From: Promethearchaeia archaeon
Lineage (GTDB): Archaea > Asgardarchaeota > Lokiarchaeia > Sigyniarchaeales > SOKP01
DNA: 32,000 nt
Assembly: GCA_046497275.1 (NCBI GenBank)
Contig: JAWOFX010000083.1
Span: forward strand, 5,721 to 37,720
Reading direction: 5' to 3'
The position numbers were made by a program, and so were the translations under genes. The notes below the pieces were generated by a model that did no database searches, had not been told where the DNA came from, and saw only the letters and a program-made list of their open reading frames with translations. This document shows, piece after piece, positions 2-9,263 of this stretch; the stretch's first letter is position 1, and every line of letters begins with the position of its first letter.

Positions 2-1816
2 TCTACTCATATTGGACAAGAATCGAGCTATTTAGATTATGAAGCAAAAAGCTTTTTAGCAGGGTTATGTGATGCTGTAGGGATGGAAATTTCGGATGCA
101 GTTCAAATTGCTGCGTATGGATTTCCTGTTGGAGAACCAGATGTTCCTAATGTAGAATTAGGGATGGGTACTATGGATACAGAGAATAAGGCAACTATAT
201 TAATGGTTGGTCACAATGTTGCTCCTGGAATTGAATTAGTAGATTATATGAGAGAAGCAGGTCTTGAAGATAAAGTTGATGTAGGAGCAATTTGTTGTAC
301 GGCAATTGATTTAACAAGATATTATGAAGGTGCTAAAATTGTTGGATCTCTTTCAAGACAGATGTTTTATATTCGTTCAGGATTAGCAGATGTTGTAATG
401 GTAGACGAGCAATGTGTCCACTTAAGATGTTATGATGAAGCAAAGAAAGTTAATGCCCCATTTATCGCCACAAACGATAAAAGGATGTGCGGATTACCTG
501 ATAGGACTGATGATCCGGAAGAAGAAATCATTGATGATTTAGTTAGTGGAAAGGTTGATGGAGTCTTAATACTGGATCCTGTGAAAGCGGGAAAAGTAGC
601 TGTAGAGACAGCAGTGAGAGTAAAACCAATCAGAAAAGGTAAAAGTGCTGTTCCAGATAAAGAAGGTTGTATGGAAATGGCATTAAATTGTAATGGATGT
701 GGAAATTGCCAGAGGAATTGTCCTAATGATTTACCTTTAGTTGATGGAGTCAATGCTGCCAAGCAAGGAGATTTCTCAATTCTAGAAGAGACATTCGATA
801 ACTGTTTAGATTGCGGACGATGCGAAGAAGATTGTATGAAAGGAGTATCACCTCTCACACTTTTAATGTATGCTGGAAGAGAAAAGATTAGAAATGAAAC
901 TTTCAATGTAAGAGTGGGACGTGGTCCAATTCGGGATACAGAAATCAGAAATGTTGGAGCTCCTATTGTATTAGGAGAAATTCCTGGAATTGTTGCGATC
1001 ATAGGATGTGCGAATTATGCGAAAGAAATTCAAGAACTTTATTTAATGGCAGAAGAATTCTGCAGCAGAAATTATATTGTGTGTGTTTCAGGTTGTGCTG
1101 CCATGGATATTGGACTGGTTAAGAATGAAGAAGGACAAACATTATATGATAGATTTCCAGGAGATTTTGACAGAGGAGGTTTAGTTAATGTTGGTTCATG
1201 TGTATCTAATCCACATATTAATGGTGCAGCAGTAAAAGTAGCAAATATATTTGCCCGTAGACCTCTAAGAGGGAATTATGAAGAGATTGCGGATTATGTC
1301 TTAAACAGAGTAGGTGCGTGTGGTGTTGCTTGGGGAGCGATGAGTCAAAAAGCAGCAAGTATCGCAAGCAGTTGTAATGGAATGGGTATCCCAGCTATCT
1401 GTGGCCCTCATTCAACAGAATATAGAAGAATGTATATTGGAAGAGCGGATGATGAAGATGTTTGGAAAGTGTATAATGCCAGAGATGGTACGGGCGATCA
1501 TTTAGTTGGTCCAGGACCAGAGCATTTACTTACAACCGCTGAAACAATTGAAGAAGCTATATGTCTAACAGCAAAAATGTGTATCAGACCTGCTGATAAC
1601 TCAAAAGGAAGAATGATTAAAATATCTCACTGGATGGATTTGGAACGCAAATATAAAGGTGTTGATATACCAGAAGATCTTGAAAAATTCATTCGAGTTG
1701 AAGCTGACATTCCAATCAATCTGAAAACTGAGATTATGGAATATCTTGAGAATGTTGGCTGGGAAGAAAAAGAGATAGTTGACCCAACTCTATTTGAGAA
1801 ATTCTGTCATTCCTAA
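2..1816 (+). CDS. cdhA: CO dehydrogenase/acetyl-CoA synthase alpha subunit (archaeal Cdh type), 5'-truncated by the window edge
   Basis: The frame is open from base 2 (STHIGQESSYLDYEAKSFLAGLCDAVG precedes the M at 83). C-cluster ligand motifs: VGHNV, AICCTAIDLTRY, VDEQC, SGCAAM, GSCVSN, AMSQKA. Two ferredoxin motifs, CNGCGNCQRNCP and CLDCGRCEEDC, are typical of CdhA. Confidence 0.97.
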   Translation, partial: STHIGQESSYLDYEAKSFLAGLCDAVGMEISDAVQIAAYGFPVGEPDVPNVELGMGTMDTENKATILMVGHNVAPGIELVDYMREAGLEDKVDVGAICCTAIDLTRYYEGAKIVGSLSRQMFYIRSGLADVVMVDEQCVHLRCYDEAKKVNAPFIATNDKRMCGLPDRTDDPEEEIIDDLVSGKVDGVLILDPVKAGKVAVETAVRVKPIRKGKSAVPDKEGCMEMALNCNGCGNCQRNCPNDLPLVDGVNAAKQGDFSILEETFDNCLDCGRCEEDCMKGVSPLTLLMYAGREKIRNETFNVRVGRGPIRDTEIRNVGAPIVLGEIPGIVAIIGCANYAKEIQELYLMAEEFCSRNYIVCVSGCAAMDIGLVKNEEGQTLYDRFPGDFDRGGLVNVGSCVSNPHINGAAVKVANIFARRPLRGNYEEIADYVLNRVGACGVAWGAMSQKAASIASSCNGMGIPAICGPHSTEYRRMYIGRADDEDVWKVYNARDGTGDHLVGPGPEHLLTTAETIEEAICLTAKMCIRPADNSKGRMIKISHWMDLERKYKGVDIPEDLEKFIRVEADIPINLKTEIMEYLENVGWEEKEIVDPTLFEKFCHS

Positions 1817-1822
1817 AAGCAT

Positions 1823-1860
1823 ATTTTTCTTTTTTTATTTTATTTCTAAATTTTTTATTT
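1823..1860 (+). terminator. Oligo-T tract downstream of cdhA, probable archaeal intrinsic terminator
   Basis: ATTTTTCTTTTTTTATTTTATTTCTAAATTTTTTATTT lies right after the stop codon; the next gene is convergent. Confidence 0.45.
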
Positions 1861-2012
1861 CTTATTATAGATTTCCTAATTAATTCATAATTTATATCTA
1901 AATATCATTATTAGAAAAAAAGCCCATGATTAATTTAGATATGCGAAAAGATCCCCTACATTTTTAAAAGAGAAAAGGGAGGATAAAAAGAGCCTATGAG
2001 ATCTTAATGATA

Positions 2013-2609
2013 TTATAAGGATGATAAGAAATCTGAAATTGCTTCGGGTTGTCTTTCTTCGTCTGTAAGTTCATCAGGCATTTCTATTTCTAGAAAAGTA
2101 AACTTATATCTACATCTATCATCATCCATTAAGACACACTCAATCTCCTCTCCTTCTGATTCAAACCCAAGAGTTCCTAAAACCCCATTTAAGATTCCTT
2201 GAGTAATAAGGCATAAATTCTTAGCCATTATATTTTCTTTTTCCTCTTCTGCTAAGGAGCCATAAATATTAACCAATAGGTGATCTTTCTTAAAAGCAGC
2301 ATCTATATATCCAAATCCCATAAGTGCTAACGCTTCAAGAATACCTAAGAAAACTTCTTTTCTTACAGGTATTTCCTCTACAGTCCAATCTTTTTCGTAA
2401 AAATATTTATCCATTATTTCCTTTCCTATAGTTTTTCCACTCCAGATCAGAATATCATCAGCATTTGCCCCGGCAAATTCTGAAAATTCAATGAGATCTA
2501 TCGGTCGGAGCATCAATAAACGAATGTCTTTTTTATCATCACCTAGGAAAAGGTGTGATTTTTTATTATCTATGTTGATTTGTAGTTCTTTTTTTATTCT
2601 TTTAAACAT
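2013..2609 (-). CDS. V4R (4-vinyl reductase)-domain protein
   Basis: 198 aa with the V4R pattern: helix with GKTIGKEI, LALMGFGYI, GILNGVLGTL and C-terminal EEIECVLMDDDRCRYKF (E..C......C.F); acidic tail. Confidence 0.8.
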   Translation of the reverse strand: MFKRIKKELQINIDNKKSHLFLGDDKKDIRLLMLRPIDLIEFSEFAGANADDILIWSGKTIGKEIMDKYFYEKDWTVEEIPVRKEVFLGILEALALMGFGYIDAAFKKDHLLVNIYGSLAEEEKENIMAKNLCLITQGILNGVLGTLGFESEGEEIECVLMDDDRCRYKFTFLEIEMPDELTDEERQPEAISDFLSSL

Positions 2610-2808
2610 ATTTTTGACCCTTTTTTAATAAAATATGAATGATAGCAAGAAACTCTATATCTTGTATGTTTTACAATTAATTAATTAGATATATAAATTT
2701 ATTGATTAATGAAAATGAATACTTAGTTAAAAAGGATATATCAATTATTTTAATAAAAATATTAAATTCTGATAATTCGCATTATAAAATCGTTCAATGA
2801 TATTGATT

Positions 2809-3864
2809 CTATATTAAATCTTCAGAAGAAATTAGATTAAAAATTATATTCAAAACTTCTTCAATATTATACCCTGTCTTCACGGATGTGAAGAGAAATT
2901 TCCATTGTCTGTCTGAAATACGATCAAATTCAAAAAAATCAAAGATTTCTTGTTCAAGTCTATAAATTTGGGTTTTATCAATATTTTTTCCATTAGAATG
3001 ATTGACTAAGTCAATCTTATTTCCCAAAATAAGTAAGGGGACTTCTTTCAATTCATAACGATTGAGAATTTTCCAAAATTCTCTTTTAGACTCTTCAAAT
3101 TGGAGTTGATTTGAAATATCAATCATAAATATTAAAATATTAGAATCTTGAAGACCTAGAAGCCATTTTTTTCTGAAAGTTCTTTGACCTGGCATATCCC
3201 ATATTGAAAGAAAGCCATCTTTCTCTTTTACATATTCAATATTAAACTTTCTCGTTGGAGTAAAATAATTATCATTAAATTTTCCTGTTTTTATTCTTCT
3301 TACTAAACTCGTCTTTCCAACCTCTTGTATTCCAAATAGAAACACTTTTACAAATATTTGTTCTTGATAATGAAATTCTATTTGAGGTCTTTTTTCAACA
3401 ACCTCATCCCCATATTTGCGTAGACTAATAAAAAGTGTAATCAGTAGGTTTTCGATTTCCATCTCATCTTCAAAACTAAAACTAGTTTCAGTATTAAGAT
3501 ATTCATGGAGTTGTTCTAAAAAGATGTCTTTATAATCGTATGGATTATCTTCTTTTTCAAAAATTAATCCAAGACTAATTCTCTTGTTAATGGAAGTAGA
3601 GTATATATTTAATCCATCAATAATTTGGGGAACAGGGTCATTAATGATATAGCTATTATGTGAATTCCTATTTTTTAACGTGTGAGATTTCCCGTTATTT
3701 CGATCTCGATATTTATTGATTAAATCTCCATGATCTTGACTATAGATTATCTTTCGAATTAAATCCCTTTCTTCAATATTAATCGAAGAAGGATAGCTAT
3801 AGATATTTAACTGATCCAGATCTGTCAGATTCTTACCCTTCAATAAAAAGATATTTAATAGCAA
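2809..3864 (-). CDS. Small GTPase (Arf-like) with N-terminal ~165-aa putative longin/uDENN-like domain
   Basis: TTG start. G1 GIQEVGKTS, G2 TPTRKFNIE, G3 WDMPGQ, G4 NKID and G5 TSVK are all present. The GTPase call is strong; the N-domain fold is an inference from the strand/helix pattern. Confidence 0.9.
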   Translation of the reverse strand: MLLNIFLLKGKNLTDLDQLNIYSYPSSINIEERDLIRKIIYSQDHGDLINKYRDRNNGKSHTLKNRNSHNSYIINDPVPQIIDGLNIYSTSINKRISLGLIFEKEDNPYDYKDIFLEQLHEYLNTETSFSFEDEMEIENLLITLFISLRKYGDEVVEKRPQIEFHYQEQIFVKVFLFGIQEVGKTSLVRRIKTGKFNDNYFTPTRKFNIEYVKEKDGFLSIWDMPGQRTFRKKWLLGLQDSNILIFMIDISNQLQFEESKREFWKILNRYELKEVPLLILGNKIDLVNHSNGKNIDKTQIYRLEQEIFDFFEFDRISDRQWKFLFTSVKTGYNIEEVLNIIFNLISSEDLI

Positions 3865-4073
3865 TTAAAGATCTAAGGATGATTTAATTTCAATATTAAT
3901 TTGGATAATTATAAAAAACTAAAAAGGTTTTTGAACTCTTAACAAATCATCTAATTTTTAGGAAAAAAGAGATAGTTTTACGGAGTTAAAAAAATGGTGG
4001 ATATCAAGAATTTTTTAAGCCTTTAGGGATAAAAATATTGATTATTATACTAACAGTTGGTTCTTCCAAACTT

Positions 4074-5453
4074 TTAAACGTCTGAATTTTCTTTGGATCC
4101 TTCGTCTTGCTCTTCTTGTTCTTCAGTCTCTTCCGAACTGACTGGAGTTCCACAAATTGGGCATTCAGTCCATCCTTCTCTCAAACCATAACCGCAGTTA
4201 GAACATTCCTTCATATTCTCTTCAGGCTCCCATTCTGGTATATCTAAGCCTCCTTGTCTCTTTTTAGCTAACTCTGTTAATTCATCTTCTGTCCATACTT
4301 CCATTCCCTCGGGTAATCCTGAACCTCTCTCCTCTTTGATTTTTTGGAGTTCATCTTCTGTCCAAACTCCTACGCCCTCTGGGAGTGATGATGAGGCTCT
4401 CTTTCTAGATTCTTCAGCTAATTCTTCAGCAGTCCATTGCTTTAATTCCTGTCCTCCTGGAGTAGTCATTCCTGTCCCTTGTTGAGAAGGCTGACTCTGA
4501 GCAGGATCTTGTGAAGGACTTACTTCTAAAGAGGGAGCATCATAACAAGCTGCTGAAAGTCTTAAGGCAGATTCAAAACAAACCTCGAAATCTTTTTCTT
4601 TATTGGATTCATTCATAACCACAATTAAAGTTGTTTTATCTGAGGGTTGTGGCAAAGCGAGAGCCGAAATAGATATTTCTGAATCTATACGTCCTGACTC
4701 CAATCCAGAAGTTAAATTCTTCAGAACATTAAGTAAATCATCTCGATTCATTAAAAAATCGCAAATAGGTTCACCATGACGTTGATACCCTTCATGATAA
4801 CGGGCTAAATGACTTTTAGTTGCGGTTAATTCTAGAGATTCAAGAATTGCAGAGATATATGCAAAATTATATGATTTCTTAGCTTTCTCTTCAGATTCTT
4901 TAAATTCATAATCTAAATCCAGCTCCCCCATAATAGGTGCGAAAAGAGGATCCTCGTCCTTTAAATTTCCGAATATGGTTGTCTTAGAAATTACAGTCTT
5001 AATCTCTCCGTAATAAGCAATAATATCATCGTATAATTCAATTGAATCATCTTTTAAAATTATTTGAGGAGCAGTTCTGAATAATACTTCCCCCCAAGGC
5101 ATCTCTTTTACAGGGATGATCGCATAACATACCTTCTCAATATAATCTTCAAGTATTTTTTTATATTTCTTAAACAAATTATTTAATTCTTTTTTCTCTT
5201 CCGCATTCTCTTCTTTCTCAATCTCCTCATTTACGCGATTTATGAATAATTTTAACGCTTCGTCATTTTTTTTAGCTACACCTCCAAAATATTTTACTTC
5301 TCCCACAATATTATCTTCTAGAATGGATGTTGCATTAGTTAACATTTCTTTTTGAAATTTTGAAAGTTCATCCTTTGGAGTAAGAAATATATAATCGAGG
5401 ATATCAAATTCAGACGTGTCAATTATTTCCTTAAACTTTTGTTGAACAGACAT
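4074..5453 (-). CDS. Hypothetical protein with low-complexity linker, W-T-x-E/D-E-L repeats and C-terminal double zinc ribbon
   Basis: 459-aa ORF with ATG start. C-terminal CSNCGYGLREGWTECPICG and an acidic tail. The N-terminal ~300 aa are not recognised. Confidence 0.75.
   Translation of the reverse strand: MSVQQKFKEIIDTSEFDILDYIFLTPKDELSKFQKEMLTNATSILEDNIVGEVKYFGGVAKKNDEALKLFINRVNEEIEKEENAEEKKELNNLFKKYKKILEDYIEKVCYAIIPVKEMPWGEVLFRTAPQIILKDDSIELYDDIIAYYGEIKTVISKTTIFGNLKDEDPLFAPIMGELDLDYEFKESEEKAKKSYNFAYISAILESLELTATKSHLARYHEGYQRHGEPICDFLMNRDDLLNVLKNLTSGLESGRIDSEISISALALPQPSDKTTLIVVMNESNKEKDFEVCFESALRLSAACYDAPSLEVSPSQDPAQSQPSQQGTGMTTPGGQELKQWTAEELAEESRKRASSSLPEGVGVWTEDELQKIKEERGSGLPEGMEVWTEDELTELAKKRQGGLDIPEWEPEENMKECSNCGYGLREGWTECPICGTPVSSEETEEQEEQDEGSKENSDV
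4230..4436 (-). repeat. Intragenic imperfect 21-24 aa repeat (LPEGxxVWTEDEL)
   Basis: Trp codons at 4434-4436, 4362-4364, 4293-4295 and 4230-4232 (spacing 72, 69, 63 nt). TTCATCTTCTGTCCA occurs twice on the + strand. Confidence 0.85.
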
Positions 5454-5591
5454 TACTAAAACCCTATATTAATATTTATCGTGAAATTTGATGTTTCTAA
5501 GATCCTATCAAAAGGCAGATATAAAAATTTAAGTGATATTTTATAGTTCTTCGGATTATGAAATCCTTTAAAAATTCTTAAGAGAGTCTTG

Positions 5592-5628
5592 TAAGATAAT
5601 TAAGATAATTTATAAAAATTAAGATAAT
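5592..5628 (+). repeat. Three copies of TAAGATAAT in the divergent intergenic region
   Basis: Exact 9-mers start at 5592, 5601 and 5620. Confidence 0.6.
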
Positions 5629-6040
5629 ATTAAAAATCAGATAAAGAATATTTAGAATTAACCGGATCAATTACCTTTTTATTATACTTATTTTGATAAG
5701 AAAACCCACTTGAGGCGTTCCTATTCAATAGAATCAAATGAAGAAGTCAAATTTTAAATTTCCTACTTTTACTATGAAAAAAGGGAAAAGAAATTGAAAA
5801 ATGTTCATCTACGTTTAAATTTAAAATAATTGAAATTTTTAATTTTTATAAATTCATATATTTAAATTTCATCCAATAAATCTTAGTAAAATCTTAATAT
5901 TTAAAGAATTAATGTCTTAATAGTATTTACTTAAATAATATTCGCAGAATTGCCAGAAAACGCTAAAAACATAGACATCGAGATGAAAATAAACATTTAA
6001 ATATAATATCACAATAATATGTAATAATAAGAATTTATAA

Positions 6041-6049
6041 TAAGGCGAT
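6041..6049 (+). promoter_or_regulatory. Shine-Dalgarno-like TAAGGCGAT upstream of RHH gene 1
   Basis: Ends 5 nt before the ATG at 6055; the same 9-mer has the same spacing before the paralog at 7816. Confidence 0.6.
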
Positions 6050-6054
6050 AATAA

Positions 6055-6351
6055 ATGAAGATTGTGACGGTAAATGTACCAGAGTCATATCTCGACGCTA
6101 TAGATAAATTAACGGGGAATAAGGGTCTATATCCTTCGCGCTCAGAACTTATTAGATGTGCAGTGAGGGATTTTTTATTAAAAGAGTTAAGTATGGCTAA
6201 AAAGCTCAAAAAATATACCATGAAGGGAGAAGATGGAGAAGACCTTCCTGAGAGTGATTATGTACGTATACCAGTAAGTAGCAAGAATGAAAAAAGTGAA
6301 TCTATTAATGATTTTAAAACGTATAAAATCATTAGGAGACTTGAATATTAG
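6055..6351 (+). CDS. Ribbon-helix-helix (CopG/Arc/MetJ-like) transcriptional regulator, paralog 1
   Basis: Strand KIVTVNVP, helix [10 protein letters not shown], turn GLYPSRS, helix [11 protein letters not shown]; plus a ~50-aa C-terminal extension. Confidence 0.92.
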
Positions 6352-7815: not shown

Positions 7816-8106
7816 TTGAAGATTGTTACTGTAAATGTTCCAGAGTCATATATAGATGTAATTGGTAGGTTGGTTGGAGAGAATGGTCTTTACCCTTCTA
7901 GGTCAGAATTAATAAGATGTGCCGTTCGAGAATTTTTAATAAAAGAGTTAAAAATGGCCAAAAGTATTCAAAAATATAATACTAAGTCAGAAATGCAACA
8001 TTTCGATGATAAGAAGTATGTGAGAGTTCCTGTAGAGGATTTAAATGAAGATGAGCCCGTAAGAGAATTTAAAACCTATAAAATTATTAAAAGATTAGAA
8101 TATTGA
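7816..8106 (+). CDS. Ribbon-helix-helix transcriptional regulator, paralog 2
   Basis: 39 of the first 49 residues are identical to the 6055 protein (hand alignment); it shares the C-terminal FKTYKII[RK]RLEY. Confidence 0.92.
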   Translation: MKIVTVNVPESYIDVIGRLVGENGLYPSRSELIRCAVREFLIKELKMAKSIQKYNTKSEMQHFDDKKYVRVPVEDLNEDEPVREFKTYKIIKRLEY

Positions 8107-8381: not shown

Positions 8382-9263
8382 ATGATATTGCTTTTATATT
8401 TCGATAGAACATTAGGACCTCGGGTATTTTTAACGAGTCCAAGCGATTTAGCAGAGAATTTGGAAAAACAAAATGTAAACAAAATCAAATCACTTCTTGA
8501 TTCGGGAGAAGAGGGCTTTTTCTCACATTATTTTTCGCAAGAATTAAAGACTGCCAATTGGATTTTTAAAATTAAATCAGATTGGGCGAGAGGGAGACGT
8601 GAAATGCTTATGATTACTATTATAGCTCCAGAAGAAGAGCCAGACTTTTCTTATTATGAAGAATTGTTATCGAAATTTATTGGAAAAATAAAGGGAACTT
8701 CAGGTATTTTCAAAGGTCTTTATATAGATTCGCAAATAGAGGGAGAAATGAATCAAATCCAAAAATCCTATCAAATACTAAAAGAAGAAGTAAATAACTT
8801 ATATAAAATCGTTTCAGTAAAAGTAATTGAAACCGAAGGAGATCTAATATCTCTCGAGACTCTTAAAAAGAGAAGAAAGATTGATCTTTCAAGCCAAGTT
8901 ATAAATAGAATTAGCAAGATTTCCAATAGTGCTGAAAATTGTTTTATTGTTTTTAGAACGAGAGGAGAATCCACAAAAATCGACATTATACCAGTTAAGA
9001 CTGAAAAAGTAATCCGGTTAGCCATAATATTTGGTGAACAGATGACAGTCCGGATTGTCCAGCAAATTGGTCAAATTTTTACTAGATATGAAGATTCTGT
9101 GTCATTAATATTTACTTCAGGGATATGTCAAGAGATAGATAGGTGTATTTATGAAGTTTATATTGATCCAAATATGGAAAAATTAAACAATATTATCGAA
9201 GAGATCTATAAAATCGAGGGAGTACTTTCGATTGAAGTAAAATTAATAGATATTGATAATTAA
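8382..9263 (+). CDS. uDENN/longin-like domain protein with C-terminal ACT domain (possible AbrB-like middle domain)
   Basis: N-terminal LLLYFDRTLGPRVFLTSP resembles the NPRL2/uDENN start (FFSEFHPTLGPKITYQVP). Residues ~210-290 follow the ACT beta-alpha-beta-beta-alpha-beta pattern, ending IIEEIYKIEGVLSIEV. Confidence 0.7.
   Translation: MILLLYFDRTLGPRVFLTSPSDLAENLEKQNVNKIKSLLDSGEEGFFSHYFSQELKTANWIFKIKSDWARGRREMLMITIIAPEEEPDFSYYEELLSKFIGKIKGTSGIFKGLYIDSQIEGEMNQIQKSYQILKEEVNNLYKIVSVKVIETEGDLISLETLKKRRKIDLSSQVINRISKISNSAENCFIVFRTRGESTKIDIIPVKTEKVIRLAIIFGEQMTVRIVQQIGQIFTRYEDSVSLIFTSGICQEIDRCIYEVYIDPNMEKLNNIIEEIYKIEGVLSIEVKLIDIDN

Follow-up and report, generated by a model that had tools for sequence, protein, structure and literature searches.

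The window analysed here, a 32,000-nucleotide stretch of a Lokiarchaeial genome, contains a gene encoding a GTPase (longin-ArfR) with an additional N-terminal domain at the position where Arf proteins carry an amphipathic helix, which raises the question of what this domain does. The features of the gene and its two neighbours are given in Table 1. The ORF begins with a TTG codon and is directly preceded by an in-frame TAA. The TTG start is right since homologues begin at the same MLxNIFL sequence; database annotations of some near-identical copies give 344 aa. A frame artefact is ruled out by the 475 homologues of the protein found in the length range searched, the named ones of which belong to Lokiarchaeota/Promethearchaeota. 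A search for shorter or split forms returned fragments only and no sign of a real split gene; larger versions of 430-540 aa, with longer N-regions, do exist.

Table 1. Features of the longin-ArfR locus, with positions counted from the first nucleotide of the window.
Feature	Position	Strand	Basis or remark
Gene for the 351-aa longin-ArfR fusion protein, orthologous to MK-D1 WP_147662730.1	2809..3864	(-)	ORF, Pfam, reciprocal best hits, tree
Longin domain, residues 1-156, beta-beta-alpha-beta-beta-beta-alpha-alpha; no GP motif; GAP-finger position without conserved Arg	3397..3864	(-)	AlphaFold2, fold searches, alignment
Insert of variable, basic/Asn-rich sequence separating alpha1 from beta3, residues 45-72	3649..3732	(-)	pLDDT below 50; mean identity 24%, elsewhere about 60%
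Near-invariant DNPYDY motif past beta5, residues 106-111	3532..3549	(-)	Alignment; ANPYDY in MK-D1
Linker, residues 157-169, where Arf has the amphipathic helix	3358..3396	(-)	Low pLDDT; Pro in 114/120; hydrophobic moment at most 0.27
Arf-related G domain, residues 170-345	2830..3357	(-)	Pfam, PDB matches, fold, tree
G1 / P-loop GIQEVGKT, residues 178-185	3310..3333	(-)	Sequence, 120-homologue alignment
Switch 1 / G2 TPTRKFNIE (T204; F207 = Arf1 F51)	3235..3261	(-)	Sequence, Arf/Arl alignment
G3 WDMPGQ, residues 222-227; DxPG against Arf DxGG; Q227 at the catalytic Gln position	3184..3201	(-)	
G4 NKID, residues 282-285	3010..3021	(-)	Sequence, 120-homologue alignment
G5 SVK, residues 327-329	2878..2886	(-)	Sequence, 120-homologue alignment
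Downstream neighbour, V4R / Bet3(TRAPPC3)-fold protein, 198 aa; 199-bp gap	2013..2609	(-)	Context only
Upstream neighbour, encoding 459 aa that include WTxEEL-type repeats and, C-terminally, a zinc ribbon; 209-bp gap	4074..5453	(-)	Context only

The G domain is related to Arf. Pfam analysis of residues 171-343 gave Arf as the best family (E 4e-29), followed by Ras (1e-16), SRPRB (7e-8) and Gtr1_RagA (8e-8), and the top PDB matches by both sequence and fold were Arl3, Arl8, Arf1 and the Asgard ArfRs 8OUK and 8OUM. The original prediction described an ORF at 2809-3864 with complete G1-G5 motifs and with the Arf-type aromatics F51, W66 and W78 retained while Y81 is replaced by Gly, and it proved correct on each of these points: the ORF is a 351-aa frame on the minus strand, all five motifs were located, and alignment to Arf/Arl chains places F207, W222, W234 and G237 at the four positions (Arf1 numbering). 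Across 120 homologues the residues G178, G183, K184, F207, W222, D223, G226, R231, W234, G237, Q239, N282, K283, D285, S327 and K329 are invariant, including the Gly at the Arf Y81 position (G237) together with F207, W222, R231 and W234. The catalytic-position Q227 is retained in 114 of the 120 and the Pro of the DxPG form of G3 in 119. Positions 2 and 3 of G1, Leu and Asp in eukaryotic-type Arf/Arl, are I/L/V followed by Asp in 112/120, and read Ile-Gln in the source copy, which alone has Gln there; the G2-G3 spacing is 19, as in Arf1, in 77/120. With G1-G5 intact and the catalytic Gln kept, longin-ArfR is predicted to bind and hydrolyse GTP, and F207, W222 and W234 would form a GTP-dependent hydrophobic surface.

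The gene is present in 63 of 68 same-family genomes and in six of seven sister-family genomes, nearly always as one copy, and the other sampled Asgard genomes gave no match at a meaningful score; longin-ArfR is a vertically inherited, mostly single-copy gene. The chromosome of strain MK-D1 (Promethearchaeum syntrophicum) encodes a 355-aa counterpart with the same sequence as WP_147662730.1. Searching MK-D1 with longin-ArfR returned this protein (E 1.6e-38) ahead of the next MK-D1 GTPase (3.4e-11), and the reverse search of the source genome returned longin-ArfR (1e-50) ahead of the next frame (1e-9), making the two reciprocal best hits. They share 35% identity over the full length (E 9e-58) and 30% over the N-domain (E 2e-13).

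The G-domain tree contained 84 rows under LG+G4, 12 of them RasL after thinning; 17 rows that were long or odd in composition and 12 redundant ones were left out, there was no MglA outgroup, and the eukaryotic rows were identified by motif only. In this 84-row tree the longin-fused family, which includes the source protein and its MK-D1 orthologue, forms one clade (99/94) outside the RagGtr, ArfL and RasL clades (each 100/100). Membership in Rag was rejected on this position, on the invariant NKxD and on the protein ending after the G domain, and membership in ArfL on the position of the G domain outside the ArfL clade. The sister of the longin-fused clade (91/82) consists mostly of stand-alone GTPases of 165-190 aa that share WDxPGQ and begin only 8-17 residues ahead of the P-loop, so the DxPG motif and the missing helix are common to GTPases that have no longin domain. 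A clade uniting the longin-fused family with eukaryotic Arf/Arl and other Arf-like rows was neither recovered nor rejected (p-AU 0.286), and the backbone is poorly supported; the assignment to ArfR therefore comes from orthology to the published ArfR. The Arf-like placement first proposed for the G domain stands in so far as it is Arf-related and apart from RagGtr, ArfL and RasL, but a clade with eukaryotic Arf was neither obtained nor rejected. A subgroup with longer N-regions, 370-540 aa in total, was also seen (P0291, P0293, P0295, P0298-P0303, L036:3951-5243), and the canonical WDxxG of G3 was undetected in these proteins.

The N-domain was modelled by AlphaFold2 from a 103-row alignment, and both this and the full-length model were built on P0002, which is the window protein except for D76 in place of N76. 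The model of the N-domain (pTM 0.74, core pLDDT about 90) contains strands at 2-9, 20-24, 78-82, 85-92 and 96-102 and helices at 33-44, 108-126 and 134-156, an order that matches that of longin domains with their five-stranded sheet. When the model was compared with 48,161 representative chains, the best 29 matches were all of longin or roadblock type. The best was the GATOR1 chain 8fw5_B (Z 10.2, rmsd 3.5 A, 128 aligned residues), which its chain length suggests is NPRL2, and the second-ranked Z was that of the dimeric Lokiarchaeal longin 8yqg (Z 10.0); the top longin matches reached Z 10.2/10.0/9.5 with 112-128 residues aligned at rmsd 3.0-3.5 A. VAMP7, Mon1-Ccz1, adaptin sigma/mu and SMCR8 were further matches, the first unrelated fold (PHY/GAF) appeared at Z 7.0, and the Foldseek and Atlas comparisons concur on the longin fold. 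The N-domain had no sequence match in Pfam, where none of the 103 members hit a longin family, and none in the PDB, so the longin assignment is made by fold comparison alone. The longin-like domain anticipated from the sequence is thus borne out. Its order of strands and helices was also described correctly, but of the 165 residues allotted to it the folded part covers 1-156 and the rest belongs to a 13-residue linker, and the list of elements missed the third central strand (78-82) and the insert at 45-72.

Conservation is 60% in the longin domain and 66% in the G domain. The conserved features of the longin domain are YP (24-25), PxxQ (77-80), GLxF...DNPYDY (99-111) and, where alpha3 ends, F-x-D-I-R-R-Y-G-D-E; R150, which also lies there, is conserved in 97/103 and does not occupy the arginine-finger position. 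The domain is acidic overall (pI 4.9), which makes direct binding of anionic lipids unlikely.

The signals by which Arf proteins reach membranes were not found in this family. A Gly at position 2 occurs in 2/120 homologues and a terminal Cys in 0/120, the amphipathic helix is absent, and the 13-residue linker is not amphipathic (hydrophobic moment 0.27 or less). As judged from its sequence, longin-ArfR has no amphipathic helix or lipidation signal, and with the longin fold established by prediction the proposal that a longin-like domain stands in place of the helix is upheld. The full-length AlphaFold2 model has a pTM of only 0.51 with linker pLDDT under 50, so that the two domains are not predicted to dock in a fixed way.

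These features are best explained, at what we consider an even chance, if the Lokiarchaeial ArfR is a soluble GTP switch whose longin domain is a non-catalytic platform for pairing or scaffolding. Under this explanation longin-ArfR by itself would not be anchored to a membrane, the flexibly linked longin would dimerise with a second longin of its own or another kind, and this pairing would bring the G domain into a complex, much like the roadblock domain of Rag GTPases, with GAP or GEF input coming from other proteins. Longins and roadblocks as a rule form pairs that serve as non-catalytic GTPase platforms, and Rags use their own roadblock in this way (PMC3747258). For the MK-D1 longin-GTPases, AlphaFold2 homodimers have been predicted at the level of the class, with four dimers shown (PMC10933270), and AArfs with extra N-domains have been proposed not to act on membranes (PMC11914678). 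A dimerisation or platform role is plausible by precedent for the longin fold seen here. Its match 8yqg is itself dimeric, a GP motif and an Arg finger are both lacking, and the model gives the two domains no fixed orientation. Against pairing, the 28-residue disordered insert between alpha1 and beta3 adjoins the usual dimer interface of longins, which runs through beta3 and alpha1, and the SRalpha longin binds its GTPase as a monomer, while the ArfR part of the explanation is weakened by our own tree, which lacks an Arf+ArfR clade without rejecting one (p-AU 0.286).

Three other roles for the longin domain were weighed against this one. A built-in GAP, in which the longin would donate the arginine finger for the G domain of the same chain or of a partner like NPRL2, FLCN and SMCR8 do, is suggested by the GATOR1 chain at the top of the fold matches, by the action of SMCR8 as an Arf GAP and by the conservation of R150. 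The GAP longins (NPRL2, FLCN, SMCR8 and one Asgard class) combine an arginine finger with a GP motif that precedes beta2 (PMC12290439), but the GP motif occurs in 0/103 homologues of the N-domain, beta4 and beta5 are joined by a turn of two residues (K, E, N or S) that includes no conserved Arg, and R150 lies away from the finger position. Profile similarity to the GP/WARG-type Asgard longins is likewise nil (probability 0.4%). This role was rejected on its motifs and we regard it as barely credible, so that the notion of a GTPase carrying its own regulator is disfavoured in the catalytic sense. Regulation in cis without catalysis, as by SRalpha-SRX on SRbeta, would require that in one of the nucleotide states the longin folds onto the G domain of the same chain and either slows exchange or hydrolysis or masks the effector surface. 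It would account for the similar conservation of the two domains, for the near-invariance of DNPYDY and of IRRYGDE at the alpha3 C-terminus, and for the presence of SRX among the fold matches (Z 7.9 and 6.0), and the G3 motif of longin-ArfR is DxPG, as in SRbeta. We nevertheless think it unlikely: AlphaFold2 did not dock the longin on the G domain with confidence, DxPG is also found in the stand-alone sister clade, the Pfam score for SRPRB (7e-8) is far from that for Arf (4e-29), and the linker runs only 13 residues from the bottom-face alpha3, while GTPases bind the top (alpha1) face (PMC3747258). Targeting is rather unlikely as well; here the longin would be a functional stand-in for the helix, recruiting the GTPase to a membrane protein or other complex on the model of the sigma/mu adaptin and SNARE longins, which bind peptides. 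Its place in the chain is that of the helix, Gly2, terminal Cys and an amphipathic stretch are all absent, and adaptin and VAMP7 longins are among the best fold matches (Z 8.3-9.5). This role has no candidate receptor, the domain is acidic, and likeness of fold proves no function.

The gene neighbourhood supplies candidate partners. The zinc-ribbon gene, longin-ArfR and the V4R gene lie on the same strand. The V4R protein has three invariant Cys and one invariant Glu, which likely form a Zn site, and its acidic C-terminal tail is conserved. Comparing coordinates by hand places the V4R gene directly after longin-ArfR in 58 of the 63 same-family genomes, the five others being three contig ends, one real rearrangement and one ambiguous case, and the zinc-ribbon gene ahead of it in all but about four of the 63. 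At sister-family loci the neighbours differ and the V4R adjacency is missing. In MK-D1, whose genome is complete, neither gene lies beside WP_147662730.1; the V4R match closest to it is about 1 Mb off, and the zinc-ribbon protein was not found with the source-genome query. The MK-D1 neighbours are presumably a PEP carboxykinase-like gene and GrpE, as named by reading the sequences. By such reading, four loci of the sister family and MK-D1 (L032, L035, L037, L048) have longin-ArfR divergent from a PEP carboxykinase-like gene, and three (L033, L035, L048) have it convergent on a GrpE-like gene. Genes for CO dehydrogenase alpha, an RHH regulator and a HIT-like protein also hold their place in the block around longin-ArfR, and since related genomes are not independent and these unrelated genes are fixed as well, the conserved adjacency carries limited weight. 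A promoter/terminator scan of 1700-6100 with a bacterial model stayed at chance level (23 against 23.5). GTPase genes of MK-D1 generally lie outside operons with such regulators (Tran et al., PMC10933270), and no description of the longin-ArfR/V4R/zinc-ribbon adjacency was found in the literature.

Further along the window, the CO dehydrogenase/acetyl-CoA synthase alpha subunit gene (2-1816, plus strand) is convergent on the V4R gene and stands beside the trio in 7/9 longer same-family loci. Two paralogous ribbon-helix-helix regulators (6055-6351 and 7816-8106, plus strand) flank a short-chain dehydrogenase gene, and related loci with one RHH copy each suggest a local duplication.

The neighbourhood allows a TRAPP-like alternative to the pairing platform, in which the V4R/Bet3-fold protein would dock on the longin and its acidic C-terminal tail would promote nucleotide exchange on the G domain, as that of Bet3 does on Ypt1. 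The same-strand adjacency in 58/63 genomes, with three of the five exceptions at contig ends, is consistent with it, as are the weak TRAPPC3 similarity of the V4R protein (E 0.085), the conservation of tail residues D183, F194, L195 and L198, and the TRAPP precedent itself (PMC3747258). We judge it quite unlikely, as the adjacency is absent from the sister family and from the complete MK-D1 genome, the intergenic gaps are about 200 bp, unrelated genes in the block are fixed too, the V4R protein carries the Cys residues that mark Zn-type V4R sensors, and the client of TRAPP is a Rab and not an Arf. Complex prediction for full-length longin-ArfR with two V4R copies scored 0.00 (mark 0.32) with the controls not folded, and is evidence neither way. 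That longin-ArfR, the V4R/Bet3-fold protein and the zinc-ribbon protein form a real complex, with the V4R tail driving exchange on a longin platform, is a long shot. If true, the trio would be a minimal archaeal TRAPP-like GEF with a fused client and would give an Asgard Arf-type GTPase its first native regulator; to our knowledge, no such GTPase has a known regulator or effector.

Other longin proteins are encoded nearby and elsewhere in the source genome. The gene at 8382-9263 (plus strand) encodes a 293-aa protein with a longin of the GP-motif/WARG kind, the signature of GAP-type longins (profile match 99.7%). At its C-terminal end it weakly matches an AsnC/Lrp-type ligand-binding profile (E 0.08), and it is a candidate ligand-sensing GAP acting in trans. 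Its full-length orthologue occurs in 11 same-family genomes including the source, within 8 kb of longin-ArfR in 10/11, was not found in the two largest genera, and is unlinked to longin-ArfR in the one single-contig sister-family genome compared. A second type of fusion between a longin and an Arf-like G domain, about 300-360 aa long, is represented by P0330, P0351, P0359, P0361 and P0386 and by a source-genome copy with a degenerate G3 (C65:19763-20839, minus strand). Its longin has the GP motif in 4/5 (the segment is missing from P0330), RG is invariant where the finger would lie, and the description of a GTPase with its own GAP-type longin fits this type better than longin-ArfR. The frame at C51:12012-13064 (plus strand) appears by eye to be the orthologue of a second MK-D1 longin-ArfR, WP_162306576.1, and has a degenerate G3 (DICC). 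All contigs of the source genome together contain 43 small-GTPase-like frames (E under 1e-4), and as 12 of them have more than 110 residues before the G domain, fusions of the longin-ArfR type are common there.

Both the longin-Arf architecture and the MK-D1 orthologue of longin-ArfR are already known. WP_147662730.1 was labelled LG, longin-GTPase, by Tran et al. 2024 (PMC10933270, Suppl. Fig. 6b), who reported 26/74 MK-D1 small GTPases fused to longin or roadblock domains, and was classed as 'ArfR, tree' by Vargova et al. 2024 (Table S3, bioRxiv 10.1101/2024.02.28.582541). Some Asgard Arfs have been described with an N-terminal longin instead of the helix (Zhu 2025, PMC11914678), and a passage of a 2016 review citing Klinger 2016 (PMC4917890) gives five longin fusions to Lokiarchaeum Arf-like GTPases. 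A fused longin offers a ready-made test of whether longin-GTPase coupling is older than eukaryotes, a point made in publications from 2016 onwards, and a better subject for it than the source-genome copy is the orthologue of MK-D1, a cultured strain. The source-genome copy adds only a family-wide conservation map, with no GAP motifs, a near-invariant DNPYDY and a DxPG common to the stand-alone sister, as well as candidate partners from its gene neighbourhood.

Compared with known systems, longin-ArfR is alike to MK-D1 WP_147662730.1 in its full-length identity of 35% and in the motifs YP, NPYDY and WDMPGQ, and differs from it in its neighbours, its variable 45-72 insert and the Gln at the third position of G1. 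The Asgard ArfR/AArf proteins HodArfR1 and GerdArfR1 (PDB 8OUK-8OUN; PMC11914678) share the G-domain fold and the Arf aromatic surface, and 8ouk and 8oum are among the Foldseek matches of the longin-ArfR G domain; these proteins have an amphipathic helix and bind membranes, whereas longin-ArfR has a longin, DxPG and a Gly at the Y81 position. Eukaryotic Arf/Arl proteins (Arf1, Arl3, Arl8) are the best Pfam, PDB and fold matches and have wDxxGQxxxRxxW and the G2-G3 spacing in common with longin-ArfR, which differs from them in lacking the amphipathic helix, the myristoyl Gly2 and the GG hinge, so that an Arf1-style helix/interswitch toggle is impossible. The GAP longins NPRL2/FLCN/SMCR8 and the Asgard GP-motif longins (PMC12290439) share the longin fold and the best structural score, but longin-ArfR lacks their GP motif and arginine finger. 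SRalpha SRX:SRbeta likewise brings together a longin and an Arf-family GTPase, though as separate chains with shown binding rather than a fusion. The TRAPP core (Bet5/Trs23 longins and Bet3) offers the same parts list of longin, Bet3-fold protein and GTPase, again as separate chains with binding shown, whereas here there is a fusion and gene adjacency in one family. Rag/Gtr proteins differ in their C-terminal roadblock and HKxD at G4 from the N-terminal longin, the NKID and the position outside the RagGtr clade of longin-ArfR, but they and the Asgard RagGtr share with it a G domain that carries its own longin/roadblock-type domain and likely the same pairing logic.
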